This document shows positions 49,391 to 62,076 of a DNA stretch of 64,000 bases, piece after piece; position 1 is the stretch's first letter; the number at the start of each line of letters is the position of its first letter. The notes beneath the pieces were generated by a model. That model worked only from the letters and a program-made list of their open reading frames with translations, did not search any database and had not been told where the DNA came from. This DNA is from Escherichia phage E26, in sequence record MN655998.1. One strand, given 5' to 3'. Made by a program: the position numbers and the translations under genes.

Positions 49391-49468
49391 TTTAAGCCTC
49401 CCATATAACAGAAAACGGGGCTAGTATAAAACTAGTCCCCGTTTGAGTCAACCATTATTTCTTAAAAA

Positions 49469-51520
49469 TTACATTTTAAATTTATCTGGCATTGCGTCTA
49501 CAGATACCAGATCAGCGATAAGCTGACGTAGAGTTGCCTTATCTGCTTTCTTACGTTCGGTTTTAGCTTCGCTAATGAAGCTGGAGAAAGACAGGTCAGA
49601 AGCAGGTTTAACAACACCTTCACGGATGAATGCATCACCGTCCGCGATCATCTCGCCAGATTCTTGTAATGCTGCCAGTTCATTTTTGTTCATAATATGT
49701 GCCTCAATGTAATAAGTTTCTTGTGAATCCGTCGATGCCGTAGCACGAGTTACCGTATCAAAGGATAACACAACACCGCGAGGAAGTAAAATCTCGCATT
49801 CTTTGTAAGCAAATGCTTTGTTACCTACTGGCAAGACAGGGATGTTTTCCGCGCCAGCAATGGAGAAAGCAACATTAGCGCCACCTTCACCGCGAGAGCC
49901 AGCCATAGAATCAACACCAGCAACGGCACTAGCCACGTTTGCATTCCAGCCGCCAAAAATGTTAGGTGCAAGGGAAGTGCTCACATAGTTTTTAAAGTAA
50001 AACGCTTTTTGCTTACGTGCAGTTTCCCACATTTGCGACCGGAAGTCCATACCACGATACAGAATAGTACCCGGATCAAGTTTAACTCCATAGTTGGAGA
50101 AGGCATTATCCAGTGCATCGCACATCTTGACCAATTCTTCTGGATCTGCGATGCCTTCAAACTCTTCCAGCTTACGATCAGTTAGGAAGTTGTTCATATT
50201 GATGTATGCTGCATCGGCATATTCGCTCAATACAAAACCTTCCGCGCCAGGCAGATCAAGATCAATATCTGCCATCATTTCACCCATGTTGCTAGCAATT
50301 GCTTCAAACATACCGGAAGCAACATTACGTAGGGCATCGGTTTTAATCTGTGTGATGTGACTACGCAGCATTTCAGCTTTTACATCTGCTGGCATAGACT
50401 GGTCTACTCGATCCATTGCCAGGGCGGTGATCTTGTTTTCGAATACTTCCTCGCTCATGATTTCTTTTAAGCGTTTGATTGATGCTGCGATAACTTCCGC
50501 AGACAACGGATCATATTGATCCTGAACTTTTACCAGTTCGCTTACTGCGTATTTTGCATCGGCTTCGCTTTCAAAAATAGTACGCATGAAACCATAGCGA
50601 GTGATAATATCACTTGTCCAGTCATTCAGAGAACGGGCGGTTGAACGTTCTAAGGCTTGACGATCAATCAGAGTATTAAACTGTTTCTTAGGTTCGGCTT
50701 CGGTGATATCTTCTTCTGGTTTAAGATTAATTTTTTCTGGATGATTCACGTAGTCGCTGTTATATGTCGCTTGAGTTTTCAGCATTTCTTCTTTAGTCAA
50801 ACGAGATTTAGCCGCTACGCGTTGTTCTGCTTCCGCGTTTCGTTCTTCTTCTGACACAAGACTAGCCGCATATGCCTCATCTTTAGTCAGAGATTCACCA
50901 GTAGCCTTAGATACCCAGCGATCACCTAAATCACTTTCTACTTTAGTGAACAAGGATTCATCAAGTTTAATCCCTTTAATCTTATCAATCGCCATCCCGC
51001 GACGCTTGACAACAACTAAAGCGATCTTTTTGCTGGTCATTACTTCCTGCTGGAATACTTCAAACTTCGGTGTACGACGCACCAAACGCTCTATAACGCG
51101 CTTAACCAGTTCGGTCTTACCTTTCATGCGGGATACGTTAAAACGGAACATAACAGCGTCTAATTGCGCTTTACGGGCTGTTTCCATAACCACATCAAAA
51201 GCACTTGCCATAACTGCAATCGGGTTATCGCCTAGACCATTTTTAAGCTGTACAATACGACCGCTTTTGTTCATTTCGCACAGTACAACATGTGCGGTTT
51301 TGTCACCCATACGAATGATTTTAGGTGTTTTGTTGGTGAAGTTACAAAGACGGACAATCACATCTTTATCGCGTGTCTGTACTGCAAAAAGCTGTTTAGG
51401 ATTCTGCTTAGGCTTTAAGCACTGTACCGGAGCAATACTGCCAAAGTTTTCTTCCTCTTCCGTCAACAGCCATTTCTCGAAAGATTCAATCATTAGATCG
51501 TCGATTTCTAAGTTAAACAT
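49469..51520 (-). CDS. alt: ADP-ribosyltransferase Alt
   Basis: 683 aa; motifs LYRGMDF, YVSTSLAPNIFGG and YKECEILLPRG; size as T4 Alt (682 aa). Confidence 0.85.
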   Translation of the reverse strand: MFNLEIDDLMIESFEKWLLTEEEENFGSIAPVQCLKPKQNPKQLFAVQTRDKDVIVRLCNFTNKTPKIIRMGDKTAHVVLCEMNKSGRIVQLKNGLGDNPIAVMASAFDVVMETARKAQLDAVMFRFNVSRMKGKTELVKRVIERLVRRTPKFEVFQQEVMTSKKIALVVVKRRGMAIDKIKGIKLDESLFTKVESDLGDRWVSKATGESLTKDEAYAASLVSEEERNAEAEQRVAAKSRLTKEEMLKTQATYNSDYVNHPEKINLKPEEDITEAEPKKQFNTLIDRQALERSTARSLNDWTSDIITRYGFMRTIFESEADAKYAVSELVKVQDQYDPLSAEVIAASIKRLKEIMSEEVFENKITALAMDRVDQSMPADVKAEMLRSHITQIKTDALRNVASGMFEAIASNMGEMMADIDLDLPGAEGFVLSEYADAAYINMNNFLTDRKLEEFEGIADPEELVKMCDALDNAFSNYGVKLDPGTILYRGMDFRSQMWETARKQKAFYFKNYVSTSLAPNIFGGWNANVASAVAGVDSMAGSRGEGGANVAFSIAGAENIPVLPVGNKAFAYKECEILLPRGVVLSFDTVTRATASTDSQETYYIEAHIMNKNELAALQESGEMIADGDAFIREGVVKPASDLSFSSFISEAKTERKKADKATLRQLIADLVSVDAMPDKFKM

Positions 51521-51561
51521 TTTATATCCTCTAGTTGATAACCTATAAACCTATATTTATG

Positions 51562-51582
51562 AAAAGGGGGCTTAACGCCCCC
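51562..51582 (-). terminator. rho-independent terminator (GGGGGCGUUAAGCCCCC family)
   Basis: minus strand hairpin then UUUU, downstream of the 70-aa gene. Confidence 0.6.
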
Positions 51583-51587
51583 ATTTA

Positions 51588-51800
51588 TTATAATGCACCA
51601 TCGAGCAATTGCTCTAATGTGTATCCTGAATAGTCTTTTTCAATCAGGATATATTTTCCTACTCGTTTAATACAACCGCGCATTTCAACGTATTCTGCGT
51701 AGTTGATGGTGCGAGTTGTTCCATCTTCTAGCAAAGCAGTACCGATTTCGTTAATGCGGTCATAAGTTACGTCGGTAATGATGATTTCGATGTTAGCCAT
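51588..51800 (-). CDS. hypothetical protein (70 aa)
   Basis: ORF with conserved cassette leader and RBS. Confidence 0.55.
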   Translation of the reverse strand: MANIEIIITDVTYDRINEIGTALLEDGTTRTINYAEYVEMRGCIKRVGKYILIEKDYSGYTLEQLLDGAL

Positions 51801-51865
51801 TTGATACTCCTTAGTAGTTCGTTTCGGTATGGGTGTATTATGATATACACCCTCTGTTATGTCAA
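51801..51865 (-). promoter_or_regulatory. PeSL-like early promoter/stem-loop cassette a
   Basis: minus strand TTGACA, 17 nt, CATAAT with GGGTGTAT..ATACACCC inverted repeat, then conserved leader CCGAAACGAACTAGGAGAATCAA-ATG. Confidence 0.6.
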
Positions 51866-51871
51866 CAACTT

Positions 51872-52051
51872 TTAGAACATTTTTGAAATTAATTCTGCTT
51901 TGATTTCGCAGAGAACATCTAAAGATTTCTCGTCACCCGCTTTTGCTGCTTCTGATTGCATTTTTGAAATGGCTTCAACGTAAGTGCAATTATAAGCCGC
52001 TTGAACTTTAGCGATTGCGATGATTGCCGATTCGATGGTTAAGTGTTTCAT
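51872..52051 (-). CDS. hypothetical small protein (58 aa)
   Basis: below ORF-track cutoff; ATG preceded by the cassette leader RBS (GGAGAATCAAAC). Confidence 0.45.
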   Translation of the reverse strand: MKHLTIESAIIAIAKVQAAYNCTYVEAISKMQSEAAKAGDEKSLDVLCEIKAELISKMF

Positions 52052-52112
52052 GTTTGATTCTCCTTTCGTTTCGGTATGTGTGCATTATAGGGGATCACCG
52101 ATCCCCTGTCAA
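52052..52112 (-). promoter_or_regulatory. PeSL-like cassette b
   Basis: TTGACA, palindromic 17-bp spacer GGGGATCGGTGATCCCC (two GATC sites), TATAAT, conserved leader; -35 overlaps the end of the DUF262 gene. Confidence 0.6.
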
Positions 52113-52640
52113 CAACTTTTTTGAATTATTTTTTAATTGCTCATCTTGTAATAGAGCAATAACATGCTGGCGATGTTCTTCCGATTGAGGCACACCGAAA
52201 AAGTTTGTTTTGTAGAAATATTCTAATCGATCTTCTCGTGTGCTCTCTTCCATCATGATCGCGGGTAGTCCGAGATTTCGGAAACGTCGCTTTTCTGCTG
52301 GCGTAAAATCACTGTAATACAACATAGAATCATCATTACCAGCAATGCTAAACTCATCTTTCATAAAGGAGAATATTGCGTTTAAACGCTGTTTACCGTC
52401 CACGATTTCGATCTCATAGCGAGAGCCATCATCAATCTTAGCCATTGCGATAGCACCAACCGGAAAATCATTAATCAGGTTTTCGATAAACATACGTTTG
52501 TTTTCGGTGTCCCATACCAAAGGACGCTGATAATCTGGGTTCATGTTGATATAGCCATCTTCTAACCACGCCTCATAAACAGAGATGACAAAGTTTTTAG
52601 TATTGGTATAGTAACGGCGTTTAGGCGTTAAACGGTTCAT
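52095..52640 (-). CDS. DUF262 / ParB-like nuclease-domain protein (GmrSD N-terminal-domain-like)
   Basis: 181 aa from ATG (MNRL, AGGAGA RBS); motifs DYQRPLVW and DGKQRL; ORF-track start at 52676 is TTG. Confidence 0.6.
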   Translation of the reverse strand: MNRLTPKRRYYTNTKNFVISVYEAWLEDGYINMNPDYQRPLVWDTENKRMFIENLINDFPVGAIAMAKIDDGSRYEIEIVDGKQRLNAIFSFMKDEFSIAGNDDSMLYYSDFTPAEKRRFRNLGLPAIMMEESTREDRLEYFYKTNFFGVPQSEEHRQHVIALLQDEQLKNNSKKLLTGDR

Positions 52641-52641
52641 G

Positions 52642-52971
52642 TTATAGTCTCCTGAATGGATCATCACGTAAATCAATATCTTTTAAGAACTCATCCCATG
52701 AATGGCGGATATTGTTCTTAATTCTCCAGATAAGCGCAGGGATTGAACGCTCTCCCATCTGGAAGTAAGGATCATATGATCCATATGCCCAATATGCTAC
52801 TACAATTCCACAATCAGCGCAATAATATTCTATTTCACTTGCTGGCGACCAAAGTCCATCAATATGATCGGTGATCCTGCTTTCGATGTTATGGCTATGG
52901 CAATCAGGGCAACGGATGCAATGACCTTGTTTATCGTAATTTGACGTTAGCGAATACTTAAACAATCTCAT
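52642..52971 (-). CDS. Zn-ribbon protein
   Basis: 109 aa; CxxC..H and CxxC pairs (CIRCPDCHSH, CADCG); start overlaps upstream stop by 1 nt. Confidence 0.5.
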   Translation of the reverse strand: MRLFKYSLTSNYDKQGHCIRCPDCHSHNIESRITDHIDGLWSPASEIEYYCADCGIVVAYWAYGSYDPYFQMGERSIPALIWRIKNNIRHSWDEFLKDIDLRDDPFRRL

Positions 52972-53687
52972 TATAGATCCTTATTTGCTTCAAATACTGC
53001 CTTTGCGAATCCTCGCGGGGTAAGTGACCTTATAGTCTTTGTTTTCGTTCCTTTCCCGCCTAGCTTAGAATGCTGTTTACTGTACCCTTTATTAATCTGC
53101 AACGGTTTCTTTTCTGGCATTATAAAGCCTTGTCCGGTCCATAAGCAAGTCCTTTTCGGGTACATATCACGGGCGGCAATATACTCAGGAAAAGTAGGAT
53201 GTTTATCATCTTCCGGCAAATAACCGCCATATTCCCACGGATGGAACATATAATCAGGCTTACGCCACATGCTAGAGATAACGCTTACAGGATTCTCTAT
53301 CATGTAGGGAACTCCTAGCCATTCACCCAAATAAGCGGTTATTTTAGCTGCCCGTACATCATGAACTTGAATCAATGGTCCTTGCTCTCGTTTCTTTCGT
53401 TCAAAGTGTGCAGCGCCACTAACAGCTAAATTGGTGCACGGTGGGAATGCAAATATAATATCCGGTTTCCCCCATTCAAGGTCCATTGCTCTTTCTAGCC
53501 AGTTCAAATCAATCCATGTGTTTACATATGTAATGTTTGGATGTTCAAATCGGGTATTATATTTTTTGTATGTACCGTGGTCGCCATCGTCAGCATTAAA
53601 GCAGATCACCTTATGACCTGCTTTAGCCCATTCTAACCCCATTATCCCCGATCCGTCAAAGTTGCAGAATATTAATTTTTGTTTCAC
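52971..53687 (-). CDS. compact DNA (cytosine-5)-methyltransferase-like protein
   Basis: 238 aa; motif I FDGSG, PC motif FPPCTNLAVSG, ENV-like MIENPV; GTG start overlapping upstream TGA with GGGGG as RBS. Confidence 0.5.
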   Translation of the reverse strand: MKQKLIFCNFDGSGIMGLEWAKAGHKVICFNADDGDHGTYKKYNTRFEHPNITYVNTWIDLNWLERAMDLEWGKPDIIFAFPPCTNLAVSGAAHFERKKREQGPLIQVHDVRAAKITAYLGEWLGVPYMIENPVSVISSMWRKPDYMFHPWEYGGYLPEDDKHPTFPEYIAARDMYPKRTCLWTGQGFIMPEKKPLQINKGYSKQHSKLGGKGTKTKTIRSLTPRGFAKAVFEANKDL

Positions 53688-53935
53688 GCTGCCCCCATTG
53701 GTTTGATAGTAACAGAATCTAAAAGACCTTTGTTAGCCAGTTCGCGGCAAGTTTTCAGATCCGCAACTTCCCAGCCAGCCGCAATCAGGTTATCAATCAG
53801 GCTGTTAGCAATTTCTTCGCTCATGAAAGAGCACTGTTTGCCGATGGTGTAGCGTACACGCTGTAATTTCAGTTTACGGAAGCCTTTAACGTTCAGGTCT
53901 TTAGCGATTTTCTTTGCGGTTTCGATGTTAGCCAT
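53684..53935 (-). CDS. hypothetical protein (83 aa), first gene of the operon
   Basis: ORF with cassette leader RBS. Confidence 0.5.
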   Translation of the reverse strand: MANIETAKKIAKDLNVKGFRKLKLQRVRYTIGKQCSFMSEEIANSLIDNLIAAGWEVADLKTCRELANKGLLDSVTIKPMGAA

Positions 53936-54004
53936 TGTTTGATTCTCCTAAGTGGTATCTCGTCTTGATGGTTGTATTGTAGGGGAGTTATCCTCCCCTG
54001 TCAA
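53936..54004 (-). promoter_or_regulatory. PeSL-like cassette c
   Basis: TTGACA, spacer GGGGAGGATAACTCCCC (inverted repeat), TACAAT, leader. Confidence 0.55.
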
Positions 54005-54018
54005 CACTTTTTATAAAA

Positions 54019-54186
54019 TTATTTGTTAATTTCCGGTGCGTTGCTTGGATAGTAACCTTCTTTAACTCCGAGGTATTTCGCAACCATCCCTACAATCTTC
54101 TGTGCTACTACAATGTCAAATTTCAGATAATCTTCACCGTAGGTTTCAATGATATATGCTTCACATGCTGCTTTAGTCTCGAACAT
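54019..54186 (-). CDS. small protein (55 aa), paralog copy 1
   Basis: MFETKAACEAYIIETYGEDYLKFDIVVAQKIVGMVAKYLGVKEGYYPSNAPEINK; near-identical second copy at 57287..57454. Confidence 0.6.
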   Translation of the reverse strand: MFETKAACEAYIIETYGEDYLKFDIVVAQKIVGMVAKYLGVKEGYYPSNAPEINK

Positions 54187-54249
54187 TTTGATTCTCCTAT
54201 TTCGTTTCGGTATGTGTGTATTATAGGGGATCTCCCGATCCCCGTCAAC
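54187..54249 (-). promoter_or_regulatory. PeSL-like cassette d
   Basis: TTGACG-like -35, spacer GGGGATCGGGAGATCCCC, TATAAT, leader. Confidence 0.55.
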
Positions 54250-54263
54250 AACTTTTTTTAAAA

Positions 54264-54545
54264 TTATTCGTGATTAGTTTCGATGTTGTGCATTTTGCAC
54301 CAGTTCAGCCAATCGCCCAGTTCTTGATAGTTGATGCTTTTATCTGCTGCCATCGTTTTTGTCTTGATACCCATATGTGCGTTATGAGTAAGCATTTTTA
54401 CAGTGAACTCGATTTTATCGCCTTTAGCTTTAACATCAACCAGTTTGGTCCACTGGCTACCAGCACCGCGAATGTTCATGCCAACGATGTTTCCGATGTA
54501 TGCTTCTTTGTTTTTCAGGATTTCGGTTGCTTTGATGAATTTCAT
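54264..54545 (-). CDS. hypothetical protein (93 aa)
   Basis: ORF with cassette leader RBS. Confidence 0.5.
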   Translation of the reverse strand: MKFIKATEILKNKEAYIGNIVGMNIRGAGSQWTKLVDVKAKGDKIEFTVKMLTHNAHMGIKTKTMAADKSINYQELGDWLNWCKMHNIETNHE

Positions 54546-54607
54546 TTTTGATTCTCCAGTTCGTTTCGGTATGGGTGTATTATGCTATGTTCTTACTTTG
54601 GTGTCAA
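54546..54607 (-). promoter_or_regulatory. PeSL-like cassette e
   Basis: TTGACA, 17 nt, CATAAT, leader; no spacer palindrome in this copy. Confidence 0.5.
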
Positions 54608-54615
54608 CAACTTTT

Positions 54616-54885
54616 TTAGATATTTTCAGAAATAAATTTTAAAACTTGACGTAAATGTTTCTCATCTTTGATAGTCGCCGGAAGTTCTTCTTTTACTTCC
54701 TGTGCAAGATAGATATTTCCGTTCCAAGTGAAAGATCCGTCTTCGTTTACGCGATAGCTGAACATCCACTCGCAATCATTTTCGATTTCATATACACACA
54801 GAAGAGTGTAATCTTCAAAGCTATTGAGTTCAAGGTCGAAGCCGTGACGTTTTGCAAAGTTGGTAGTGGTTTTAGTCAGTGCCAT
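54616..54885 (-). CDS. hypothetical protein (89 aa)
   Basis: ORF with cassette leader RBS. Confidence 0.5.
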   Translation of the reverse strand: MALTKTTTNFAKRHGFDLELNSFEDYTLLCVYEIENDCEWMFSYRVNEDGSFTWNGNIYLAQEVKEELPATIKDEKHLRQVLKFISENI

Positions 54886-54954
54886 TGTTTGATTCTCCTA
54901 AGTGGTATCTCGTTTCGATGTGTGTATTATGCTATAGGCGTGTTCTGGTGTCAA
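54886..54954 (-). promoter_or_regulatory. PeSL-like cassette f
   Basis: TTGACA, 17 nt, CATAAT, leader. Confidence 0.5.
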
Positions 54955-54978
54955 TTCTTTTTTTAAAATTTTATGCAA

Positions 54979-55004
54979 TAAAAAAGCCGACGCTAAGGTC
55001 GGCT
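54979..55004 (-). terminator. rho-independent terminator after paralog A1
   Basis: minus strand AGCCGAC-CUUAGC-GUCGGCU then UUUUUU. Confidence 0.6.
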
Positions 55005-55011
55005 AATAAAA

Positions 55012-55320
55012 TCATTTAGACAAATAATCATTCTGTGCAATCCGGTCAGCATGTTCCGGCGTTACGTCAATTGCAATCACTTTAACGCGTGCTTTCTTGC
55101 GACCTGGGTTTTCTCGTAGCCAGTGCGTGTGACCGTACAAATTTTTATACTTTGATGCTTCTTCGAAGGTACGGATCGGACCTGGGTAATCAGCGTAAAG
55201 GATCTCTAGATCTTCGGTGATGTAAAAATATACATCGTAATTGCTGTTCTCTAGCTTAAGCAGAGACTTTCGGAACATTGGGAGATTTTCGCGGGTAAAT
55301 TCAAAGATATTATCTTTCAT
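55012..55320 (-). CDS. HxHW-family paralog A1
   Basis: 102 aa from ATG (MKDN, GAGGA RBS); GHTHWL then VKVIAIDV. Confidence 0.55.
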   Translation of the reverse strand: MKDNIFEFTRENLPMFRKSLLKLENSNYDVYFYITEDLEILYADYPGPIRTFEEASKYKNLYGHTHWLRENPGRKKARVKVIAIDVTPEHADRIAQNDYLSK

Positions 55321-55344
55321 AGTATTATCCTCAATAGTTGGATG

Positions 55345-55367
55345 AAAAGGGGGGCTTAACGCCCCCA
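55345..55367 (-). terminator. rho-independent terminator (GGGGGCGUUAAGCCCCC family)
   Basis: same hairpin as at 51562..51582 and, on the other strand, after wac. Confidence 0.6.
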
Positions 55368-55371
55368 TATA

Positions 55372-55659
55372 TTAAAACAGTCCTTCCTGTACACCGTAAT
55401 AGAGTTCGTCGCTGATAATTTCATTAATGCGACGGTGTGCATATTCCTGATTTGCGAAGTTGTCAGCAAGTTCTACTTTAGTTTCTCCGTCATGAGTCCA
55501 TTTAGTGATAACTTTACCATCTGCAAATTTGAAGTTGAACTCTTTAGCTACCGCATCGCGTACCAGACGTGCAAACTTATTGTTGCGGATTGCATTGTCG
55601 GTTTCGTGTGCAGCGTGAGCGAATTTGTTAACTTTCAGAGTGATAGTAATGTATGCCAT
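55372..55659 (-). CDS. small protein, family C paralog 1
   Basis: 95 aa; RLVRDAVAKEFNFK matches REVRKALAKEFNTK in 58672..58983. Confidence 0.5.
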   Translation of the reverse strand: MAYITITLKVNKFAHAAHETDNAIRNNKFARLVRDAVAKEFNFKFADGKVITKWTHDGETKVELADNFANQEYAHRRINEIISDELYYGVQEGLF

Positions 55660-55734
55660 AATTTGATTCTCCTAGTTAGAAAGTGTATCTCGTTTCGATG
55701 GGTGTATTATGCTATACACCCGACCTTATGTCAA
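55660..55734 (-). promoter_or_regulatory. PeSL-like cassette g
   Basis: TTGACA, 17 nt, CATAAT flanked by GGGTGTAT..ATACACCC, leader. Confidence 0.55.
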
Positions 55735-55740
55735 CACTTT

Positions 55741-56019
55741 TTATAAAATAATTTTTTGATATTTTTCTATGATGTTCGTGTAAGTCACATCAACCGCTAG
55801 CACCGTTGCTTCGAATCCACCGTTTAGCCAATGGCTATGGTCATGATCGTGAAAGAAACCAAGACCAGTACGAAGACCTTCTTTATATTCTGCGCGTACA
55901 TTTAGATCATCATCGATAAACAGATAAAACCATGAATTTTTACTAGGATTGATGATACAACCTTTCAGATTAGGGAGAATATCACGACTAAGAATAAACT
56001 TATCACCTACTTTGAACAT
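55741..56019 (-). CDS. HxHW-family paralog A2
   Basis: 92 aa from ATG (MFKVGDKF, GAGGA RBS); HSHWL then VLAVDV. Confidence 0.55.
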   Translation of the reverse strand: MFKVGDKFILSRDILPNLKGCIINPSKNSWFYLFIDDDLNVRAEYKEGLRTGLGFFHDHDHSHWLNGGFEATVLAVDVTYTNIIEKYQKIIL

Positions 56020-56033
56020 AATATTTTCCTCAC

Positions 56034-56342
56034 TTATAAAGTTTGACCGTTGTTTTTCGCGTAATGCTGAATGCGTGCTTGATCTGCTTCCGCTGGTGAT
56101 AGATTCCATGCAACCACTACAACTTCTGACGCATCGTCATCCGTTTTTGATACCCAATGATTATGATTCATACAATTGTTTGCTATCGCGTGAGCAAATG
56201 ATTTCATCACTGGAGATGTATAATCATAGTAACGGATTTTCAGATTTTCATCAACATACAAGTAGATCGTATAAGGTTTATATTCAGTAACCAGTAACAG
56301 ACAGTTACGCAATTCTGGGAAAATCTTTTTAGTTAATTTCAT
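56034..56342 (-). CDS. HxHW-family paralog A3
   Basis: 102 aa from ATG (MKLTKK, GAGGA RBS); HNHWV then VVVVAWNL. Confidence 0.5.
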   Translation of the reverse strand: MKLTKKIFPELRNCLLLVTEYKPYTIYLYVDENLKIRYYDYTSPVMKSFAHAIANNCMNHNHWVSKTDDDASEVVVVAWNLSPAEADQARIQHYAKNNGQTL

Positions 56343-56343
56343 T

Positions 56344-56553
56344 TTATAATCCTCGGTCGCGGCTATAGTACACGGTACGCCATACAATTTCATGTTTCGT
56401 GTCGCTCCAGCACACGATCTCATTTACTCTTAAATCTTTGTTATCAACAAAAGATGAACATTGTGACGTTTCTTTCATCATTTTATCTGCTGTTTTCTCA
56501 TCAAATACAGCACAGATTTCTTTATACACTCGATAATCTTTAAACTTGCTCAT
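56344..56553 (-). CDS. small protein, family B tandem paralog 1
   Basis: 69 aa; MSKFKDYRVYKEICAVFDEKTADKMMKETSQCSSF against MSKFKDYKAYQQILRVYEPEFAEKMMEDASKCPSF in the neighbour. Confidence 0.55.
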   Translation of the reverse strand: MSKFKDYRVYKEICAVFDEKTADKMMKETSQCSSFVDNKDLRVNEIVCWSDTKHEIVWRTVYYSRDRGL

Positions 56554-56555
56554 AA

Positions 56556-56765
56556 TTAACACCAATCAAGAGTTTTTGAAAACACATCTATCCATTGTTG
56601 AGTATATGCGGTTTCTTTCCATGATACAATACCGGTAGAATAATGGTTTTTGTTTCCAGAAAAGGACGGGCATTTTGATGCATCTTCCATCATCTTTTCG
56701 GCGAACTCTGGTTCGTATACTCGCAAGATCTGTTGATATGCTTTGTAGTCTTTAAATTTGCTCAT
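56556..56765 (-). CDS. small protein, family B tandem paralog 2
   Basis: 69 aa; see paralog 1. Confidence 0.55.
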   Translation of the reverse strand: MSKFKDYKAYQQILRVYEPEFAEKMMEDASKCPSFSGNKNHYSTGIVSWKETAYTQQWIDVFSKTLDWC

Positions 56766-57030
56766 AATCGTTAACTACCTTATCAGCTTCTTTTATTGTT
56801 TTTACATCAACTGCGATAACCCGTAAAGGTTCGTCGTGGTTCCACCAATGATCGTGAATATCAGCTTGTGATTTATCACCAAAGGAATCACGAATATCAT
56901 TTTTACATTTATAGCTAATGTGACCGTCATAGTCAACATAAAGGTAATTATCGAAAATCGGCGTTTTTAAGATCATACCGAAAAATCTTTCTTTGTGTGT
57001 CTTATCCAGCGTTGCAGTAATTCGCATCAT
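56752..57030 (-). CDS. HxHW-family paralog A4
   Basis: 92 aa; HDHWW then VIAVDV; GAGGA RBS. Confidence 0.55.
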   Translation of the reverse strand: MMRITATLDKTHKERFFGMILKTPIFDNYLYVDYDGHISYKCKNDIRDSFGDKSQADIHDHWWNHDEPLRVIAVDVKTIKEADKVVNDYEQI

Positions 57031-57042
57031 AATATATTCCTC

Positions 57043-57222
57043 TTAGAAAGGGATGGTCATTTCTTGAGCTTGTACATTCTCGTTAGGATTAAACTTCATC
57101 CAACCGATATTGTCTACCAGCATATGTACATTTTTATCATACCCTACGTGAGTAGTCAACACTAAATGTGCTTTACCTTCAACGATGATTTCCATGTACT
57201 TCTGAACTTCGATAGCTTTCAT
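57043..57222 (-). CDS. hypothetical small protein (59 aa)
   Basis: below ORF-track cutoff; cassette leader RBS. Confidence 0.45.
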   Translation of the reverse strand: MKAIEVQKYMEIIVEGKAHLVLTTHVGYDKNVHMLVDNIGWMKFNPNENVQAQEMTIPF

Positions 57223-57283
57223 TTTGATTCTCCGTTTGTTGTCTTGATGGGAGTATCTTACTACTCCCTTTAATCATTGTCAA
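57223..57283 (-). promoter_or_regulatory. PeSL-like cassette h
   Basis: TTGACA followed by GGGAGTA..TACTCCC inverted repeat around a weak -10, leader. Confidence 0.45.
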
Positions 57284-57286
57284 CTA

Positions 57287-57454
57287 TTATTTGTTAATTT
57301 CCGGTGCGTTGCTTGGATAGTAACCTTCTTTAACACCCAGATATTTTGCAACCATTCCGGTGATCTTCTGTGCTACTACGATATCGAATTTCAGGTAGTC
57401 TTCACCGTGGGTTGCTACAATGTATGCTTCGCATTCTGCTTTAGTCTGGAACAT
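57287..57454 (-). CDS. small protein (55 aa), paralog copy 2
   Basis: MFQTKAECEAYIVATHGEDYLKFDIVVAQKITGMVAKYLGVKEGYYPSNAPEINK; last ~47 nt identical to copy 1. Confidence 0.6.
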   Translation of the reverse strand: MFQTKAECEAYIVATHGEDYLKFDIVVAQKITGMVAKYLGVKEGYYPSNAPEINK

Positions 57455-57518
57455 TTTTGATTCTCCTATATCTCGTTGGTATGTGTGTATTATAGGGGAT
57501 CTCCCGATCCCCTGTCAA
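57455..57518 (-). promoter_or_regulatory. PeSL-like cassette i
   Basis: TTGACA, spacer GGGGATCGGGAGATCCCC, TATAAT, leader. Confidence 0.6.
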
Positions 57519-57526
57519 CAACTTTT

Positions 57527-57835
57527 TTATTCTTCATCTTCATTTTTATCTTTATATGCGTACTTCATAAATTTGTCTGCTACTTTGTCCGCGTTTTCAG
57601 GTTCTACGTCTGACGCTAGGACAACAGCTAGTTCGGTTTTGTCGTTTCCATCATACCAATGATTATGAGTGTCGTTTTCTTTGATATAAAACGAATCATT
57701 TGGAGTTGTGCGACAATATACGTCTAAATTCCCATCGATATAAAAGATCCAATCCGAATACAAAATGATTGTTTTAGCCAGATTTTTATTGTCTCTTACA
57801 AAAGGTTCCGCGACAAATAGCTTAGTTTGTTCCAT
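57527..57835 (-). CDS. HxHW-family paralog A5
   Basis: 102 aa from ATG (MEQTK, GAGGA RBS); HNHWY then VVLASDV. Confidence 0.5.
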   Translation of the reverse strand: MEQTKLFVAEPFVRDNKNLAKTIILYSDWIFYIDGNLDVYCRTTPNDSFYIKENDTHNHWYDGNDKTELAVVLASDVEPENADKVADKFMKYAYKDKNEDEE

Positions 57836-57851
57836 AGTAATTTCCTCAAAA

Positions 57852-58043
57852 TTATACAGCTTCGTAAACTTCCCAATGTCCAACACCAGCACGCTTAACG
57901 AAAAGGTTTTCTTTGATGTTATTCATAAACGTCTGGATGGATTTAATGCGGTTGGAAGGTTTCCAGTCTTCGTTAGCATTGCGGCGATACATTATAACAT
58001 TACCAGATCGCTTATATTCAGCAACCATTTTAAGACCACACAT
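57852..58043 (-). CDS. hypothetical protein (63 aa)
   Basis: ORF with GAGGA RBS. Confidence 0.45.
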   Translation of the reverse strand: MCGLKMVAEYKRSGNVIMYRRNANEDWKPSNRIKSIQTFMNNIKENLFVKRAGVGHWEVYEAV

Positions 58044-58099
58044 AATAATATCCTCAATTTGTGGGAGAGTATTACCCTCCCAATTATTGTTATACTACA

Positions 58100-58402
58100 T
58101 TACGCAAAATGGCGTGTCAATGCTTCTTTTGCTGTTCCGCTAAGATTCTCGATCTCTCCTGGCATAACATCAACCGCCAGAACTTCTACAACATCCTCTG
58201 ATCCTAACCAGTGAGTATGACCTTTGTAGAACTTGATATCCCATTTAACGCTATCGCTAGCCCACCACACATCACCGTCGATAAAGTTGATGTAAAGCAC
58301 ACTACGACACATTGAATTAATTACTTTCAATACTGCGCCTTTCATCTCTTCCACGGTATGGTCTTCCATTTTGAAGACCTCACCTACCTGAACTTTTGCC
58401 AT
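58100..58402 (-). CDS. HxHW-family paralog A6
   Basis: 100 aa; GHTHWL then VLAVDV; GAGAGGTGA RBS. Confidence 0.55.
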   Translation of the reverse strand: MAKVQVGEVFKMEDHTVEEMKGAVLKVINSMCRSVLYINFIDGDVWWASDSVKWDIKFYKGHTHWLGSEDVVEVLAVDVMPGEIENLSGTAKEALTRHFA

Positions 58403-58419
58403 TTAGTCACCTCTCTTTA

Positions 58420-58599
58420 TTACATAACAATCACGCCAGCCGTTGAAAGTTGATGTTTCAACTGAGCATTTTCTGCTACCGTCAAATCAATGATTTCTTG
58501 TGACGCTGCAATCATATAGCCATTGGTGATATTGTTTTGCATCAGTTCAATGGTTTCTTCGTTGTAGCGGATTTTAGCGATGATTTCGTTGAAGTTCAT
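58420..58599 (-). CDS. hypothetical small protein (59 aa)
   Basis: below ORF-track cutoff; cassette leader RBS. Confidence 0.45.
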   Translation of the reverse strand: MNFNEIIAKIRYNEETIELMQNNITNGYMIAASQEIIDLTVAENAQLKHQLSTAGVIVM

Positions 58600-58663
58600 A
58601 ATTGATTCTCCTAGTTCGTTTCGGTATGTGTGTATTATAGGGGAGTTTAGCCTCCCCTGTCAA
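58600..58663 (-). promoter_or_regulatory. PeSL-like cassette j
   Basis: TTGACA, spacer GGGGAGGCTAAACTCCCC, TATAAT, leader. Confidence 0.6.
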
Positions 58664-58671
58664 CAACTTTT

Positions 58672-58983
58672 TTAAAGTTTTTCCATGATAACGGTCATAA
58701 TTACATCTTCTGCGCGAGCGGTCAGATTATCAGCGTCAGCATGTGGGCGGTTGGTTGTTACAGAGATAACACCGTTGCGCACTGGTTTGATATTGATATC
58801 AAGATGATCCGCGAAACGTTCGCCAGTTACAGAATGAATTTTGGTGTTAAATTCTTTTGCCAGTGCCTTGCGAACTTCACGAATCAGGATAGCGTTTTTC
58901 AGTTGGTTCTCCGCGCTCATGGTCTTCTGGGTGTTCATGGTTCCGTCGAAGTCAATCATTGGCAGCGTTACGATGTATTTCAT
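58672..58983 (-). CDS. small protein, family C paralog 2
   Basis: 103 aa; shares the VRxAxAKEFN motif with 55372..55659. Confidence 0.5.
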   Translation of the reverse strand: MKYIVTLPMIDFDGTMNTQKTMSAENQLKNAILIREVRKALAKEFNTKIHSVTGERFADHLDINIKPVRNGVISVTTNRPHADADNLTARAEDVIMTVIMEKL

Positions 58984-59057
58984 TTTTGATTCTCCGTTTA
59001 AGAAAGTGTGTTTCGTTTTGATGTGTGTAGTATAGGGGATCGGTGATCCCCTGTCAA
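58984..59057 (-). promoter_or_regulatory. PeSL-like cassette k
   Basis: TTGACA, palindromic spacer GGGGATCACCGATCCCC, TATACT, leader. Confidence 0.55.
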
Positions 59058-59070
59058 CAACTTTTTTGAA

Positions 59071-59415
59071 TTATTTTTTCATGAGCTTAATTGCTTCTTC
59101 CATAGCCAACACATTTCGATAGTTAGGGTATCGTGTTAGATCGTCATACATTCGCTTAAGGGTGGAAACTTCCTCAAACTCTGGGTTTTCTAGATACAGT
59201 TGAACAAATTGTTTCTCTATCATCTCTGCTTTTAGCTTGTCTGCTTGTTCCTGTTCATATGATTTAGTTGGACCCAACACCAACAAAATGATAAAGGTGA
59301 TCAACGGGCTAATGATCAACGATAGGATAACATAACCGATAACGCTACGGTTTAAACGGCTTGCATACATGCCTACCAGGAAAACAAAAAGGATATAGAT
59401 AAACAGAAAGAACAT
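59071..59415 (-). CDS. small membrane protein
   Basis: 114 aa; two N-terminal hydrophobic helices then charged tail. Confidence 0.5.
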   Translation of the reverse strand: MFFLFIYILFVFLVGMYASRLNRSVIGYVILSLIISPLITFIILLVLGPTKSYEQEQADKLKAEMIEKQFVQLYLENPEFEEVSTLKRMYDDLTRYPNYRNVLAMEEAIKLMKK

Positions 59416-59422
59416 ATAATGG

Positions 59423-59896
59423 TTACTCCTTATTTTCGCGCTCGTACTTTTCGAAATAAAATTCTACTGGCTGGTCATTAATTGACAGCAAGCCAAAGCG
59501 TTTAGCCGCTCGCAATCCCATATTGCGCTGAATGTACTTCTGGAAGTTCTCGCGTATACACTTACGCCAGTATTCTAAGCCCATACAGCTTTTATAAAGA
59601 TTGCATTGCACACACGCCGGATTCATGTTATCAAGTATATCATGTTCCGGTTTATGCATTCCTACAACCTTATACTTCCACGATCCATCATCATTACGGG
59701 CAATTCGTCCATTTTCATCATAGACTACCTTTGAGCGTCGCAATACTGGTTTGATGTGGTCTGCGTGCCAGCGATCCCCTAGTTCCTCGCCACAATAGGC
59801 ACAACGTCCACCATATTTCATTTTCAGGATCTGGCGTTGCTCTTTCTTTGACAATTTTTTAGGTTTAGGGGCTTTTGCCCCTTCATTATCACACAT
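59423..59896 (-). CDS. small HNH endonuclease
   Basis: 157 aa; HNH core CAYCGEEL..WHADHIKPV..NMNPACVQCN. Confidence 0.65.
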   Translation of the reverse strand: MCDNEGAKAPKPKKLSKKEQRQILKMKYGGRCAYCGEELGDRWHADHIKPVLRRSKVVYDENGRIARNDDGSWKYKVVGMHKPEHDILDNMNPACVQCNLYKSCMGLEYWRKCIRENFQKYIQRNMGLRAAKRFGLLSINDQPVEFYFEKYERENKE

Positions 59897-61385
59897 CGAA
59901 TACCTCTTTTACTGTATTTGCAGTGGTCTTGTCGTAGCGAATACGTTTGATGATTGGGAGAAATAAAGAGAACTCCGGTTCATCTTCTTTACGTGATTTG
60001 CTGCGGATATACCCGTTGCATGTCATCTCAATGACTTTTCCAATCAGGTTATGACGATCAGCCCATAACATTTCTCGGTCGAGTTCATTTCTACGATCGA
60101 ACGGAATTACACGTTCAATACCATCATCACCTTTTTCGGTTGTAGTGTCGGTTAATCCAGATCCGGTGTTAGTCATCATTCGTCCGCACGCACTACGGAC
60201 AGTAAAACCGCCTACCTTATTGGGGTCTTTACTATGCGGATATACATCAACAATTTCCGCGTCGAAGTCAATCACTTCTTTAAATTTAACCTGATCTTTA
60301 CTACGGCGATCTTCAAATACACCATGTAAATTTTTAAGGATAATACCTTCTAAGCCCATGTTTACATAGCGATGATATACTTCGCGAGCTTCGTCTATAT
60401 TGTTAACTACAGTGTTTTCGATTATCTGAACACGAGGATCGTTAAGTTCTTCAACAATCTGTTTTAGTTCTTCGAATCGATCTTTATATTGCTTCGTTGC
60501 TTTCTCGTTTCCGTAATACACATCACGGTCGATAACATCCCAGACAGTGTAAACAATACATTGGGCTTCTTCTTTTGGAATAGTTCCTTTCAGTGATTTG
60601 TTGAGGATACCATTTCCGGTCTGACGATCTGCAACAACGGATTCTTTTACTGCTTCCGCTACTGGAGTTAATGGCATTTCCTCTTCTTCAAATATCCATG
60701 ACAGAGTACCATCATAAACGCTCTCAACGAAGTTCTGCGCTGGTGTTTGTGAAAGGGTAGGCATATATACCAATTCGCCATCTAGAACAATTCCACGGCC
60801 TCGTAGACGCTCTAAAACCGCAAACAAATCATCAAGCCCTTGATAGGTATTACCTGAGCGGGTATAGATTGCTAATGTTTCCCCGTCAATATCAGCCATA
60901 CCACGAGCGCCATCGCTTTTAAGTTGTGCATACGCCGGATATTTGATATTGGCAATAGTCTTATCAGAACATGACGATGCAAGGTGGCACGGTTGCTGAG
61001 GAATCAGTTTCTTCCATACCTTGTTTGCAGTGGTAGCGGAACAGCCGCATTCCAGATCACGATTCAGGACCATCATCGCAACTTTAGCATCATCCTCTGA
61101 CAAGCAAGTCAGAGTATCGGTAACTAGCTGTAATGCTGCATTACCAGTTACTTGACGCGTGGCAAGTTTATTTTTAAAGACCTGTAATGCACCGGATAAA
61201 GACAATACAGACGAATAGCGAGATGGTTTATCGTATTTCTTTACGCCAAACGTAACCTGTTTGCAATATGCCAGATAAAAGCATTCTTTCAGCGTTTCAT
61301 TGCTCGCGGATTCTTTCAGGATCTTTTCTTTCAGCGATGTTTTGTCGGTTGCTGCAAGCTGATTAATGATATTAAGAATTGACAT
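59889..61385 (-). CDS. 30: ATP-dependent DNA ligase gp30
   Basis: 498 aa from ATG (MSIL); adenylation motif KSDG (AYAQLKSDGARG); EGIILKN, FLPI..R..DK; ORF-track start at 61391 is GTG. Confidence 0.95.
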   Translation of the reverse strand: MSILNIINQLAATDKTSLKEKILKESASNETLKECFYLAYCKQVTFGVKKYDKPSRYSSVLSLSGALQVFKNKLATRQVTGNAALQLVTDTLTCLSEDDAKVAMMVLNRDLECGCSATTANKVWKKLIPQQPCHLASSCSDKTIANIKYPAYAQLKSDGARGMADIDGETLAIYTRSGNTYQGLDDLFAVLERLRGRGIVLDGELVYMPTLSQTPAQNFVESVYDGTLSWIFEEEEMPLTPVAEAVKESVVADRQTGNGILNKSLKGTIPKEEAQCIVYTVWDVIDRDVYYGNEKATKQYKDRFEELKQIVEELNDPRVQIIENTVVNNIDEAREVYHRYVNMGLEGIILKNLHGVFEDRRSKDQVKFKEVIDFDAEIVDVYPHSKDPNKVGGFTVRSACGRMMTNTGSGLTDTTTEKGDDGIERVIPFDRRNELDREMLWADRHNLIGKVIEMTCNGYIRSKSRKEDEPEFSLFLPIIKRIRYDKTTANTVKEVFDV

Positions 61386-61851: not shown

Positions 61852-62005
61852 TGAAACTAATCTCGCTAATCAGAGAGAACGGATCATAATCGTCATGAGG
61901 AATATCGACAGTAATCGAATGAGGATTTACCCATACACCAAACTGGTCTTCTTCGGTGAATACTTCGGTATGGATTTCGTGGATGTTTACATTCATAGTT
62001 TTCAT
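61843..62005 (-). CDS. hypothetical small protein (about 53 aa)
   Basis: AAGGA RBS and ATG; stop overlaps the NADAR start; below ORF-track cutoff. Confidence 0.3.
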
Positions 62006-62057
62006 AATAAAATTCCTTAATAATCAATAACTTACAAAATCATATAGCCAAAATATA

Positions 62058-62076
62058 GGCGGGATTATTTCCCGCC
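62058..62076 (-). terminator. stem-loop after gene 31
   Basis: minus strand GGCGGGA-AATAA-TCCCGCC then U-rich tract. Confidence 0.45.

Follow-up and report, generated by a model that had tools for sequence, protein, structure and literature searches.

Promoter-early stem-loops (PeSLs) were described in hyperplastic region 3 (HPR3) of the coliphages RB49 and phi1 (Arbiol, Comeau, Kutateladze, Adamia & Krisch 2010, Genome Biol Evol 2:140; PMC2839356), each comprising an AT-rich tract, consensus sigma-70 boxes, a G(n)-loop-C(n) stem, a Shine-Dalgarno (SD) sequence and an ATG, with the stem placed between the two boxes or across the -10 (five stem positions were defined). The RB49/phi1 signature has been given as this stem together with TTGACA-N17-TATAAT (PMC4122927), and the RB49 early promoter consensus, with T or C at -12, agrees with mapping of early-transcript 5' ends (PMC1524935). 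A lacZ fusion of phi1 PeSL206/205 gave about 13,000 Miller units, and termination was assayed for one PeSL only, RB49 PeSL211/210, whose stem-loop alone, in uninfected E. coli, matched rrnB T1 in reducing downstream lacZ (PMC2839356). The same authors sequenced recombination mini-circles whose crossovers mapped within these very PeSLs, to the loop, the A-tract or the interval from -10 to ATG, and proposed a gene-shuffling role for PeSLs (PMC2839356). Elements of this kind in other T4-like phages, namely PeSLs and PmSLs (T4/PST, KVP40/nt-1; Comeau, Arbiol & Krisch 2014; PMC4122927) and the PeSL-like elements of the T-even internal-protein loci, likewise unite a promoter and a stem-loop in one repeat, cluster in hyperplastic regions and are tied to gene replacement.

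Here, we analyzed a 64-kb stretch of DNA (the window) from a Krischvirus (RB49-like) coliphage. Its identity was 95-97% with Delraymugoa, 011D4, KFS-EC and Makalu, and 93-96% with RB49 and Phi1. The initial annotation had described eleven PeSL-like cassettes in an early region. This region is flanked by alt and DNA ligase, and all 11 ORFs downstream of the cassettes are orthologues of phi1/RB49 HPR3 ORFans (ORFs 185, 186, 190, 191, 193, 194, 198, 204, 205, 209 and 210; 93-100% identity). The locus is HPR3, and the repeats are the published PeSLs in the strict sense: window cassettes were 90-100% identical to PeSL206/205, PeSL211/210, PeSL193/191 and PeSL194/193, and the orthologous sites in the GenBank record of GEC-3S carry promoter annotation with -35 and -10 signals. 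All defining features matched, including the AT-rich tract, TTGACA-N17/18-TATAAT, stem placement, an ORFan downstream with its SD and ATG, a locus between alt and gene 30, orthologous flanking genes and the association with gene indels. Allelic detail alone differed: compared with phi1/RB49, the window lacks ORF189.1, ORF192 and ORF195/196 and has ORF211, and several sites carry another loop or -10 allele (for example, GGGA/TATAAT upstream of ORF205, against ACC/TATACT in phi1). The other T4-like elements differ in having T4-type early (TTTACW...TAYWAT) or Mot boxes, with stems richer in AT (AGNA...TCNT, A3-4G3...C3T3-4; PMC4122927), whereas here the sigma-70 boxes are of the RB49 consensus type and the stems are G4/C4. 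The cassette family was found solely in 58 Krischvirus-type records, with 7-11 copies per record. Thus, the observation was correct but ordinary, because the repeats are PeSLs in the very region where these were defined and tested in 2010.

The pattern TTGAC[AGT]-N15-19-(T/C)AnnnT-N10-45-GGAG[AT]ATCAA-N0-6-ATG, run over the 64-kb window, matched exactly 11 times, always on the minus strand (51798 to 59057; the cassettes lie within 51798-59074). Leave-one-out nhmmer recovered all 11 copies (E = 1e-11 to 1e-16 for ten, 4e-3 for the divergent copy at 57283), and the full HMM revealed no further strong copies across the window. In 10 of the 11, at least 11 of 12 TTGACA/TATAAT positions matched, whereas block shuffles of the whole window gave a mean of 2.7 such sites. 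A chance origin is excluded by these E-values and by consensus matches above the shuffle mean. The cassettes, referred to below by the start of the -35 hexamer, are as follows.

58981..59074, minus strand: ORF210-orthologue cassette (PeSL211/210), TTGACA 59057-59052, ATG 58983-58981; spacer palindrome GGGGATC-acc-GATCCCC (-12.8 kcal/mol), -10 TATACT, long leader, GGAGAATCAA; 85/87 identical to RB49 PeSL211/210
58597..58680, minus strand: ORF209-orthologue cassette (58663), 18-nt spacer with stem GGGGAG-gctaaa-CTCCCC (-13.9 kcal/mol), -10 TATAAT; GGGGATC-type core at this site in 5/10 relatives
57452..57535, minus strand: ORF205-orthologue cassette (57518; PeSL206/205), spacer palindrome GGGGATC-ggga-GATCCCC (-14.9 kcal/mol), -10 TATAAT; 67/74 identical to phi1 PeSL206/205
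57220..57300, minus strand: ORF204-orthologue cassette (57283), the most divergent copy, lacking a long A-tract; -10 TAAGAT bracketed by stem GGGAGTA/TACTCCC (-12.2 kcal/mol)
55657..55751, minus strand: ORF198-orthologue cassette (55734), -10 CATAAT, long leader; stem GGGTGTAT/ATACACCC around the -10 (-13.9 kcal/mol)
54883..55004, minus strand: ORF194-orthologue cassette (54954), promoter core without a stem; canonical terminator hairpin plus T-run (54985-55004) just upstream of the A-tract, the position of the published subclass 'SLS upstream of -35'
54543..54624, minus strand: ORF193-orthologue cassette (54607), promoter and leader intact, without any stem-loop (0 kcal/mol); 70/70 identical to phi1 PeSL194/193
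54184..54265, minus strand: ORF191-orthologue cassette (54248; PeSL193/191 of phi1, PeSL192/191 of RB49), -35 TTGACG overlapping stem GGGGATC-ggga-GATCCCC (-13.9 kcal/mol)
53933..54021, minus strand: ORF190-orthologue cassette (54004), -10 TACAAT, stem GGGGAG-gataa-CTCCCC (-13.6 kcal/mol); heads the operon ORF190, methyltransferase-like ORF189, ORF188 and GmrSD_N ORF187
52049..52129, minus strand: ORF186-orthologue cassette (52112), spacer palindrome GGGGATC-ggt-GATCCCC (-12.8 kcal/mol), -10 TATAAT
51798..51882, minus strand: ORF185-orthologue cassette (51865), -10 CATAAT bracketed by stem GGGTGTAT/ATACACCC (-12.1 kcal/mol), SD variant GGAGTATCAA

The established order is A-tract, TTGACA, 17-18 nt, -10 hexamer, A/C-rich leader, GGAG[A/T]ATCAA and ATG. 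The cassettes are not a uniform 65 nt as first estimated, but 64-78 nt from -35 to ATG and about 80-95 nt with the A-tract. A near-invariant leader had also been proposed, which holds for GGAGAATCAA (10/11 cassettes) but not for ACCGAAACGAA, present in five and replaced elsewhere by CGAAACGAGATAC, CAAGACGAGATAC, CAAAACGAAACAC, ACCAACGAGAT or CAAGACAACAAAC. Folding predicted stable core hairpins in nine copies (-12 to -15 kcal/mol; z = -2.3 to -4.6 against shuffles). The spacer, described earlier as usually a perfect inverted repeat, contains the stem in six (59057, 58663, 57518, 54248, 54004 and 52112); in three (55734, 51865 and 57283) the stem brackets the -10, and in two (54954 and 54607) no core stem was found. 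One stem had been misquoted as GGGGAGG/CCTCCCC and is actually GGGGAG/CTCCCC, 6 bp plus an A-T closing pair. It should be noted that the core stem is dispensable for a working cassette, because two cassettes lack it and one of these, 54607, has a spacer and -10 that are invariant in all 10 genomes having the site.

On the basis of these results, we are confident that the locus as a whole represents the PeSL cassettes of a Krischvirus HPR3, acting as expression units and recombination sites. Each cassette would be a self-contained unit serving a single small early gene or a short operon, and its A-rich, UP-like tract and near-perfect sigma-70 promoter could be used by unmodified host RNA polymerase immediately after infection. 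Promoter activity is documented for orthologous cassettes (PMC2839356), and all eleven copies are probably active. The transcript would begin with a conserved 5' leader of some 30-40 nt, A/C-rich and unstructured, and carry a strong SD, (A)GGAG, 6-9 nt upstream of the ATG. Since the G/C-rich hairpin, inside the spacer or around the -10, lies upstream of its own start site, only polymerases reading through from the upstream gene would transcribe it, hence its likely role as an attenuator or terminator insulating adjacent modules. Such hairpins may well terminate in vivo. However, the stems are followed by UAUAAU-ACACAC with no U-run, and a terminator scan called none of the six spacer stems while calling three canonical terminators in the same region, so termination is not predictable from sequence.

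With eleven direct-orientation copies of a 65-95 bp repeat in 7.3 kb, crossing-over between copies by the efficient homologous recombination of the phage is to be expected; it would delete, duplicate, insert or exchange whole gene modules, each bringing its own promoter, and would also convert cassette cores into each other. The comparison with ten relatives reproduces the published shuffling model, the role also suggested initially: whole-gene indels end in cassettes, and chimeric cassettes mark deletion junctions. A crossover between cassettes 51865 and 52112 deleted ORF186 in JK32, Cognac and Sf20 and left a chimeric cassette; JK32 lost ORF191 between 54004 and 54248; and a 3-kb deletion in Cognac has its ends in the cassette-plus-gene repeats of ORF191 and ORF205. 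The A-tract of cassette 54248 (54256-54264) is the site of ORF192 in RB49 and G2494 and of a different, unrelated 367-nt insert in JSE, and the ORF195/196 module of RB49, JK32 and Sf20 is inserted at cassette 54954, a duplicated copy of which flanks the module. Stem type, loop and -10 variant reassort between orthologous sites, and promoter cores swap. Breakpoints did not all coincide with cassettes: the ORF189.1 indel and a 261-nt insert at 58400 fall at gene junctions without a cassette, and the loss of ORF211 and the deletion of ORF210+211 each have a cassette at one end only. Against a null of any gene junction (11 of 25 have a cassette), enrichment at cassettes was p = 0.025 by a liberal and p = 0.31 by a conservative count.

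Shuffling may be an evolved function of the cassettes and not a by-product of homology. It is nevertheless quite conceivable, if not the reading to which we incline, that they are merely strong early promoters whose leader and ribosome-binding site have been optimised, recombining passively and carrying ordinary insulating hairpins; a similarity arising from selection for expression plus local gene duplication is credible to a like degree. The paralogues ORF191/ORF205 (87% nucleotide identity over 172 nt) and ORF198/ORF210 (both phrog_7474) were evidently duplicated together with their cassettes, breakpoints are only modestly more enriched at cassettes than at the remaining gene junctions, no recombinase is known, and T4-type recombination requires less than 50 bp of homology (PMC2839356). 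This explanation parts from the shuffling model solely on whether shuffling was selected, which sequence cannot decide, and core swaps at non-adjacent orthologous sites together with two different inserts at one A-tract show that cassette recombination is frequent whatever its evolutionary status. The comparison with integron cassettes (attC) and lambdoid 'morons', made by Arbiol et al. (PMC2839356), rests on small single-gene modules bounded by hairpin-forming repeats, gained and lost whole, with circular intermediates reported. In contrast to integrons, the PeSLs have no known integrase or other site-specific recombinase, and none was found here; the PeSL cassette carries its own promoter, whereas integron cassettes depend on Pc; crossovers spread over the repeat (A-tract, loop, -10 to ATG) are expected of homologous, not site-specific, recombination. 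The 'linker' sequences of Botstein and Campbell, conserved intergenic sequences that steer exchange to acceptable junctions, are a concept and not a sequence family, of which PeSLs are a concrete instance.

Selection on structure had been claimed from complementary stems, and 3-4 compensatory pair changes, no more, agree with it: two in the -10-bracketing class (the ORF198 site has GGGGATAT/ATATCCCC in Phi1, GEC-3S, RB49 and Sf20) and 1-2 in the spacer class. Most covariation measures did not exceed shuffle and slide controls, so this support is thin and a conserved DNA palindrome is a possible alternative. That the palindromes act as DNA, as operators or recombination targets bound by a dimeric protein of phage or host, and not as RNA hairpins, appears improbable. 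GGGGATC-N3-4-GATCCCC is a perfect palindrome between -35 and -10, and protein binding there would block RNA polymerase; near-invariant stem bases with freely variable loops, as seen across the compared genomes, are also expected of sequence-specific half-sites; and a GGGG...CCCC-binding recombination protein has been speculated upon (PMC2839356). On the other hand, the stems comprise at least four unrelated sequences (GGGGATC, GGGGAG, GGGTGTAT/GGGGATAT and GGGAGTA) in three registers relative to the hexamers, arm changes, where present, are compensatory, G-T wobble variants (GGGGGTC...GATCCCC) are tolerated, and the rrnB T1-like reduction of lacZ occurred without phage protein (PMC2839356). 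Finally, the suggestion that paired GATC sites make promoter activity dependent on Dam methylation is very hard to sustain. The E. coli host is Dam-positive, and the 'several' spacers said to hold two GATC sites in the palindrome are four of the 11. However, the 392 GATC sites observed in the window, against 360 expected, show neither avoidance nor enrichment, and the eight cassette sites are a single stem allele in four paralogous copies. GATC is also not strictly conserved in stems: in 11 genomes, one GATC was lost from 8 of 47 GATC-type stems without loss of the stem, 16 other spacer stems lack it, and at the orthologous site upstream of ORF209 stems with and without GATC alternate. The methyltransferase-like gene at 52971-53687, for which no Pfam match was found, has motifs, as read from its sequence, of the C5-cytosine type (FPPC, ENP) and not of the Dam type.

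In addition, one possible twelfth PeSL-type site lies outside the family.

58043..58120, minus strand: TTGACA-N17-TAGTAT (10/12 consensus positions), promoter within the ORF208 3' end, ORF207 downstream

The nhmmer search with the cassette HMM did not detect this site. Its hairpin GGGAGGG-taata-CTCTCCC, followed by a differing leader ATTGAGGATATTATTATG before ORF207, fits the published PeSL subclass 'SLS downstream of -10'.

The repeated unit can be read directly on the minus strand of 51500-59400. When the whole 64-kb window was searched with a regular expression (TTGAC[AGT], 15-19 nt, a -10-like hexamer, 10-45 nt, GGAG[AT]ATCAA, 0-6 nt and ATG), exactly 11 matches were obtained, every one of them on the minus strand. 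These cassettes, each named after the start of its -35 hexamer, precede orthologues of RB49/phi1 ORFs as follows.

Cassettes of the array and the orthologues that they precede
59057, minus strand: cassette before the ORF210 orthologue
58663, minus strand: cassette before the ORF209 orthologue
57518, minus strand: cassette before the ORF205 orthologue
57283, minus strand: cassette before the ORF204 orthologue
55734, minus strand: cassette before the ORF198 orthologue
54954, minus strand: cassette before the ORF194 orthologue
54607, minus strand: cassette before the ORF193 orthologue
54248, minus strand: cassette before the ORF191 orthologue
54004, minus strand: cassette before the ORF190 orthologue
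52112, minus strand: cassette before the ORF186 orthologue
51865, minus strand: cassette before the ORF185 orthologue

An HMM built from the 11 copies matched those 11 only with strong scores in the window (E = 1e-11 to 1e-19), together with two marginal sites at 9965-10027(+) and 35401-35458(-). Leave-one-out models built from the other ten copies recovered all copies (E = 1e-11 to 1e-16; 4e-3 for the divergent copy at 57283). At least 11 of the 12 positions of TTGACA/TATAAT were matched in ten cassettes and 10 of 12 in the remaining one, the spacer being 17-18 nt long; after block shuffling of the entire window, an average of 2.7 matches at 11 or more positions was obtained. A fixed-spacer promoter pattern search (11 matches versus 9.3 expected) was uninformative because it allowed one mismatch and an 18-nt spacer only. 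The eleven repeats are real and far beyond chance. The cassette alignment shows A-rich tracts upstream of the -35 hexamer, and all 11 copies end in GGAG[A/T]ATCAA-N0-3-ATG, the ATG being that of an ORF of 55-103 aa. The size of ~65 bp reported previously does not hold as a uniform value, since -35 and ATG lie 64-78 nt apart, and the near-invariance described for the leader applies to GGAGAATCAA only, the remainder falling into several sub-types. No Pfam family was found by a Pfam scan of the ORFs downstream of the cassettes, and when 49000-64000 was compared with Rfam, allowing E up to 1, a chance snoRNA match was the only outcome; the cassette and its leader are covered by no curated Rfam family. 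Cassettes with this leader were restricted to 58 Krischvirus-type records, at 7-11 places in each.

Promoter-early stem-loops (PeSLs) were first defined in RB49 and phi1 (Arbiol et al., 2010; PMC2839356) as an AT-rich tract, consensus sigma-70 boxes, a stem-loop, often of poly-G/poly-C, and the Shine-Dalgarno sequence and ATG of an ORFan; the stem is found most often between the boxes or overlapping the -10, other positions being upstream of the -35 and downstream of the -10. About 52 copies were reported per genome, with a concentration in hyperplastic regions. For RB49/phi1 the signature was later given as G(n)-loop-C(n) and TTGACA-N17-TATAAT (Comeau et al., 2014; PMC4122927). Megablast of the region against GenBank phages returned 63 records, nearly all of them ~164-kb genomes of Krischvirus (RB49-like Straboviridae, including RB49, Phi1, JSE and GEC-3S) at 93-97% identity. 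The array is flanked by the alt ADP-ribosyltransferase gene (49469-51520) and by the ORF212 HNH and DNA ligase genes (59423-61391), a placement that is the same in the Krischvirus relatives. Downstream of the cassettes lie ORFs that share 93-100% identity with phi1/RB49 ORFs 185, 186, 190, 191, 193, 194, 198, 204, 205, 209 and 210, and for the cassettes themselves the identity is 90-100% to the phi1/RB49 intergenic elements PeSL206/205, 211/210, 193/191 and 194/193, named after the ORFs on either side (for example, 85/87 to RB49 PeSL211/210, 67/74 to phi1 PeSL206/205 and 70/70 to phi1 PeSL194/193). Judged from these sequences, the cassettes are members of the PeSL family, beyond mere similarity. 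The initial annotation had called them PeSL-like; anatomy, locus, ORF orthology and cassette identity all match published PeSLs of RB49 and phi1, and its interpretation was therefore right, the observation being confirmed and the interpretation supported. It should be noted that this is a known feature, with the locus and even the individual elements on record: what the elements are built of, where they lie and what they are proposed to do was reported for RB49 and phi1 in 2010, with an extension in 2014, so that its discovery here adds almost nothing. The residual value is confirmatory and comes from ten further Krischvirus genomes, mostly sequenced after those papers.

By analogy with published work on the orthologue of cassette 57518, the cassettes would act as early promoters for host RNA polymerase. 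That orthologue, PeSL206/205, gave ~13,000 Miller units of lacZ, and in most other PeSL clones the -35 or the -10 had mutated, presumably since such promoters are too strong to clone (PMC2839356). Early 5' ends of RB49 have been mapped (PMC1524935), and in the GEC-3S record the orthologous sites are marked as promoters, each with its -35 and -10 signals.

We compared the alt-to-ligase interval of the window with that of ten relatives, using collinear alignments rebuilt by hand from the full list of BLAST HSPs. Eleven indel events were distinguished, of which six had both ends in cassettes, three had one end and two had none.

Indel events in ten relatives, relative to the window
ORF186 loss: JK32, Cognac and Sf20; crossover between cassettes 51865 and 52112; both ends
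ORF191 loss: JK32; between cassettes 54004 and 54248; both ends
ORF192 insertion: RB49 and G2494; A-tract of cassette 54248; both ends
367-nt insert unrelated to ORF192: JSE; same A-tract of cassette 54248; both ends
ORF195/196 module: RB49, JK32 and Sf20; flanked by a duplicated copy of cassette 54954; both ends
3-kb deletion: Cognac; exactly between the ORF191 and ORF205 cassette-plus-gene repeats; both ends
ORF211 loss: one end at a cassette
ORF210 and ORF211 loss: one end at a cassette
JSE replacement: one end at a cassette
ORF189.1 indel: no cassette end; bounded by a repeat of ~16 nt
261-nt insert at 58400: no cassette end

A comparison of cassette positions with breakpoints in related genomes, as proposed with the initial annotation, thus found at least one end in a cassette for 9 of the 11 events. 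Whole-gene indels must end at gene junctions, so the appropriate null is the share of junctions in the region that bear a cassette (11/25); against it, the enrichment of breakpoints at cassettes over other gene junctions was modest (p = 0.025 when breakpoints are counted liberally and p = 0.31 when they are counted conservatively). The qualitative evidence from the junctions is stronger than this statistic. On the basis of a table of spacer and -10 alleles at each orthologous site in eleven genomes, chimeric cassettes could be recognized: an ORF186-type core (the promoter part of the cassette) stands before ORF185 in all three genomes with the ORF186 deletion, and an ORF191-type core stands before ORF190 in JK32. 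At the sites before ORF209, 205, 210 and 186, stem type, loop triplet and -10 allele (TATAAT/TATACT) reassort independently of the flanking genes. Together these patterns are what recombination and gene conversion among cassettes should leave behind, and the distribution of alleles indicates frequent gene conversion between non-adjacent ones. The chimeric cassettes at deletion junctions and the reassorting promoter cores in the ten genomes provide independent support for cassette-mediated shuffling. Previously, inverse PCR in RB49 and phi1 had detected circles of ORF191-194, ORF192-193 and ORF210; within the flanking PeSLs, the crossovers had been mapped to the stretch from the -10 to the ATG, to the loop or to a position beside the AT-rich tract (PMC2839356). 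Shuffling without PeSLs also occurs: ORF189.1 (226 nt), present in 8 of 10 relatives and missing in the window genome (53671-53686) and JSE, lies at a tight gene junction with an imperfect ~16-nt direct repeat (GAAAcAAAAATTAAT).

The core could be folded into a hairpin of -12 to -15 kcal/mol in nine of the 11 cassettes (z = -2.3 to -4.6). The spacer had been described as usually a perfect inverted repeat, which is the case in 6/11 cassettes; in three others the stem lies around the -10 (GGGTGTAT/ATACACCC twice and GGGAGTA/TACTCCC once), and the cores of cassettes 54954 and 54607 have no stem. Cassette 54954 has a canonical hairpin and T-run at 54985-55004, directly upstream of its A-tract. Cassette 54607 lacks any hairpin, yet it is 70/70 identical to the orthologous phi1 ORF194/193 intergenic sequence, and its spacer and -10 are unchanged in all ten genomes having the site. 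One stem given earlier as GGGGAGG/CCTCCCC is actually GGGGAG/CTCCCC.

Among the eleven genomes, at least four unrelated stems occur; they take up three registers with respect to the hexamers, and their loops vary. Compensatory changes amount to two pairs between GGGTGTAT/ATACACCC and GGGGATAT/ATATCCCC and to one or two pairs between GGGGATC/GATCCCC and GGGGAG/CTCCCC; in formal covariation counts for two stem classes, most measures were not above shuffle and slide controls, and we therefore make no claim of statistical proof of structural selection. Selection on structure, as argued in the initial annotation, is suggested by a qualitative pattern: stems differ in sequence and in register, with compensation in a few pairs. 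Since each stem lies ahead of the start site of its own cassette, any action as RNA would be limited to read-through transcripts. PeSL211/210 is the orthologue of cassette 59057, and its stem-loop lowered downstream lacZ approximately as much as rrnB T1 (PMC2839356). In the window, the spacer stems are followed by UAUAAUACAC with no U-run, and a terminator scan called none of them and three canonical terminators in the same region. With this one published assay and the variety of stems and registers, a predicted RNA attenuator is the best-supported role of the stem, not proven for these copies. A role at the DNA level, as a protein target or as an extruded hairpin in recombination, is a minor possibility that was also raised by the original authors (PMC2839356). 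Evidence is thin for three of the published claims: termination by stems without U-tracts, structural selection rather than mere conservation of a palindrome, and breakpoint enrichment over ordinary gene junctions.

One form of the DNA-level reading is that the GGGG(ATC)...(GAT)CCCC palindromes are actively recognized, as extruded hairpins or duplex half-sites, by a nicking or pairing phage protein, which might be the HNH endonuclease (ORF212, 59423-59896, immediately upstream of the array) or a structure-specific nuclease. Stem bases are nearly invariant while loops vary, and core exchange between distant sites is far more frequent than flank exchange; we nevertheless regard such recognition as very unlikely. 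Were it to occur, PeSL shuffling would be a targeted, integron-like process, and Dam methylation of the paired GATC could modulate promoter firing or cleavage. An integron attC site depends on a dedicated tyrosine recombinase, and its crossover takes place at one fixed point of a folded single strand. No integrase or recombinase was found among ten ORFs in and beside the region by a Pfam scan, and none is named in the published annotations of the ten relatives. A site-specific gene cassette of the attC kind was rejected on the lack of a tyrosine recombinase among the scanned ORFs and on the scatter of crossovers within the repeat. The attenuator remains the preferred reading of the stem.

Methylation-sensitive promoter activity had been raised as a possibility, should GATC be modified, on account of paired GATC sites inside the palindromes of several spacers. 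Such pairs are present in 4/11 cassettes, and all eight GATCs come from one stem allele. Over the eleven genomes, two GATC are found in 39 spacer stems, one in 8 and none in 16; variants with one retain the hairpin via a G-T pair or a shortened stem, and the site before ORF209 alternates between GATC and non-GATC stems. The window contains 392 GATC (360 expected); with neither depletion nor enrichment, the chief indirect ground for suspecting a role of Dam falls away. ORF189, the methyltransferase-like gene of the region, carries, as read from its sequence, motifs of the C5-cytosine type (FPPC and ENP), not of the Dam type; it had no Pfam match, and its PHROGs name is 'DNA methyltransferase' only. 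No observation here supports methylation sensitivity of the cassette promoters, which is improbable.

Several other features of the window were observed. The methyltransferase-like gene belongs to a four-gene operon (52095-54021, minus strand) that is headed by cassette 54004 and starts with ORF190.

Other genes of the region
52971-53687, minus strand: methyltransferase-like protein (phrog_757; FPPC and ENP motifs; no Pfam match)
52642-52971, minus strand: zinc-ribbon protein, member of the cassette-54004 operon
52095-52676, minus strand: GmrSD_N/DUF262 protein (PF03235, E = 3e-20)
55012-55320, 55741-56019, 56034-56342, 56752-57030, 57527-57835 and 58100-58402, minus strand: ORFs of one paralogous family

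The GmrSD N-terminal domain, without the C-terminal nuclease and beside a methyltransferase, is reminiscent of a module for anti-restriction or counter-defence. In the whole window GGCC is strongly scarce (18 observed, 73 expected, ratio 0.25), AGCT is moderately scarce (ratio 0.61), and GATC, CCGG and other 4-bp palindromes are near expectation, suggesting that a restriction specificity of the HaeIII type (and of the AluI type) is avoided.

The six paralogous ORFs (92-102 aa; orthologues of phi1 ORFs 197, 199, 200, 203, 206 and 208) have in common an H-x-H-W motif and, after it, V-x-A-x-D-V; their pairwise identities are 27-35%, with E down to 2e-12; thus, the hyperplastic region is partly an array of diverged duplicates. 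Two gene-plus-cassette duplications were also found: ORF191/ORF205 (54018-54189 versus 57286-57457; 87% nucleotide identity over 172 nt) and ORF198/ORF210 (55372-55659 versus 58672-58983; both phrog_7474).

A second, smaller type of repeat occurs at 55320-55366 (-), 58043-58082 (-) and also 51520-51582. It consists of a G-rich hairpin (GGGGGCGTTAAGCCCCC at 55366 and 51582; GGGAGGGTAATACTCTCCC at 58082), followed by a T-run in two of the three copies and, at 55366 and 58082, by a different conserved leader, ATTGAGGATAwTAyTATG. This repeat resembles a terminator joined to an RBS, with no consensus promoter; the copy at 58082, however, is preceded by a promoter match of 10 of 12 positions at 58120. 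Outside the array, near-consensus sigma-70 promoters without the conserved leader were found at 18978(+), 9969(+), 36013(-), 35442(-) and 695(-). The one at 18978 has a stem of -22.5 kcal/mol around the -10 (ATCCGTTCTCG...CGAGAACGGAT), and those at 9969 and 36013 directly follow terminator hairpins. These promoters are probably PeSLs of other subclasses, which fits the published number of ~50 PeSLs of several subclasses per genome.
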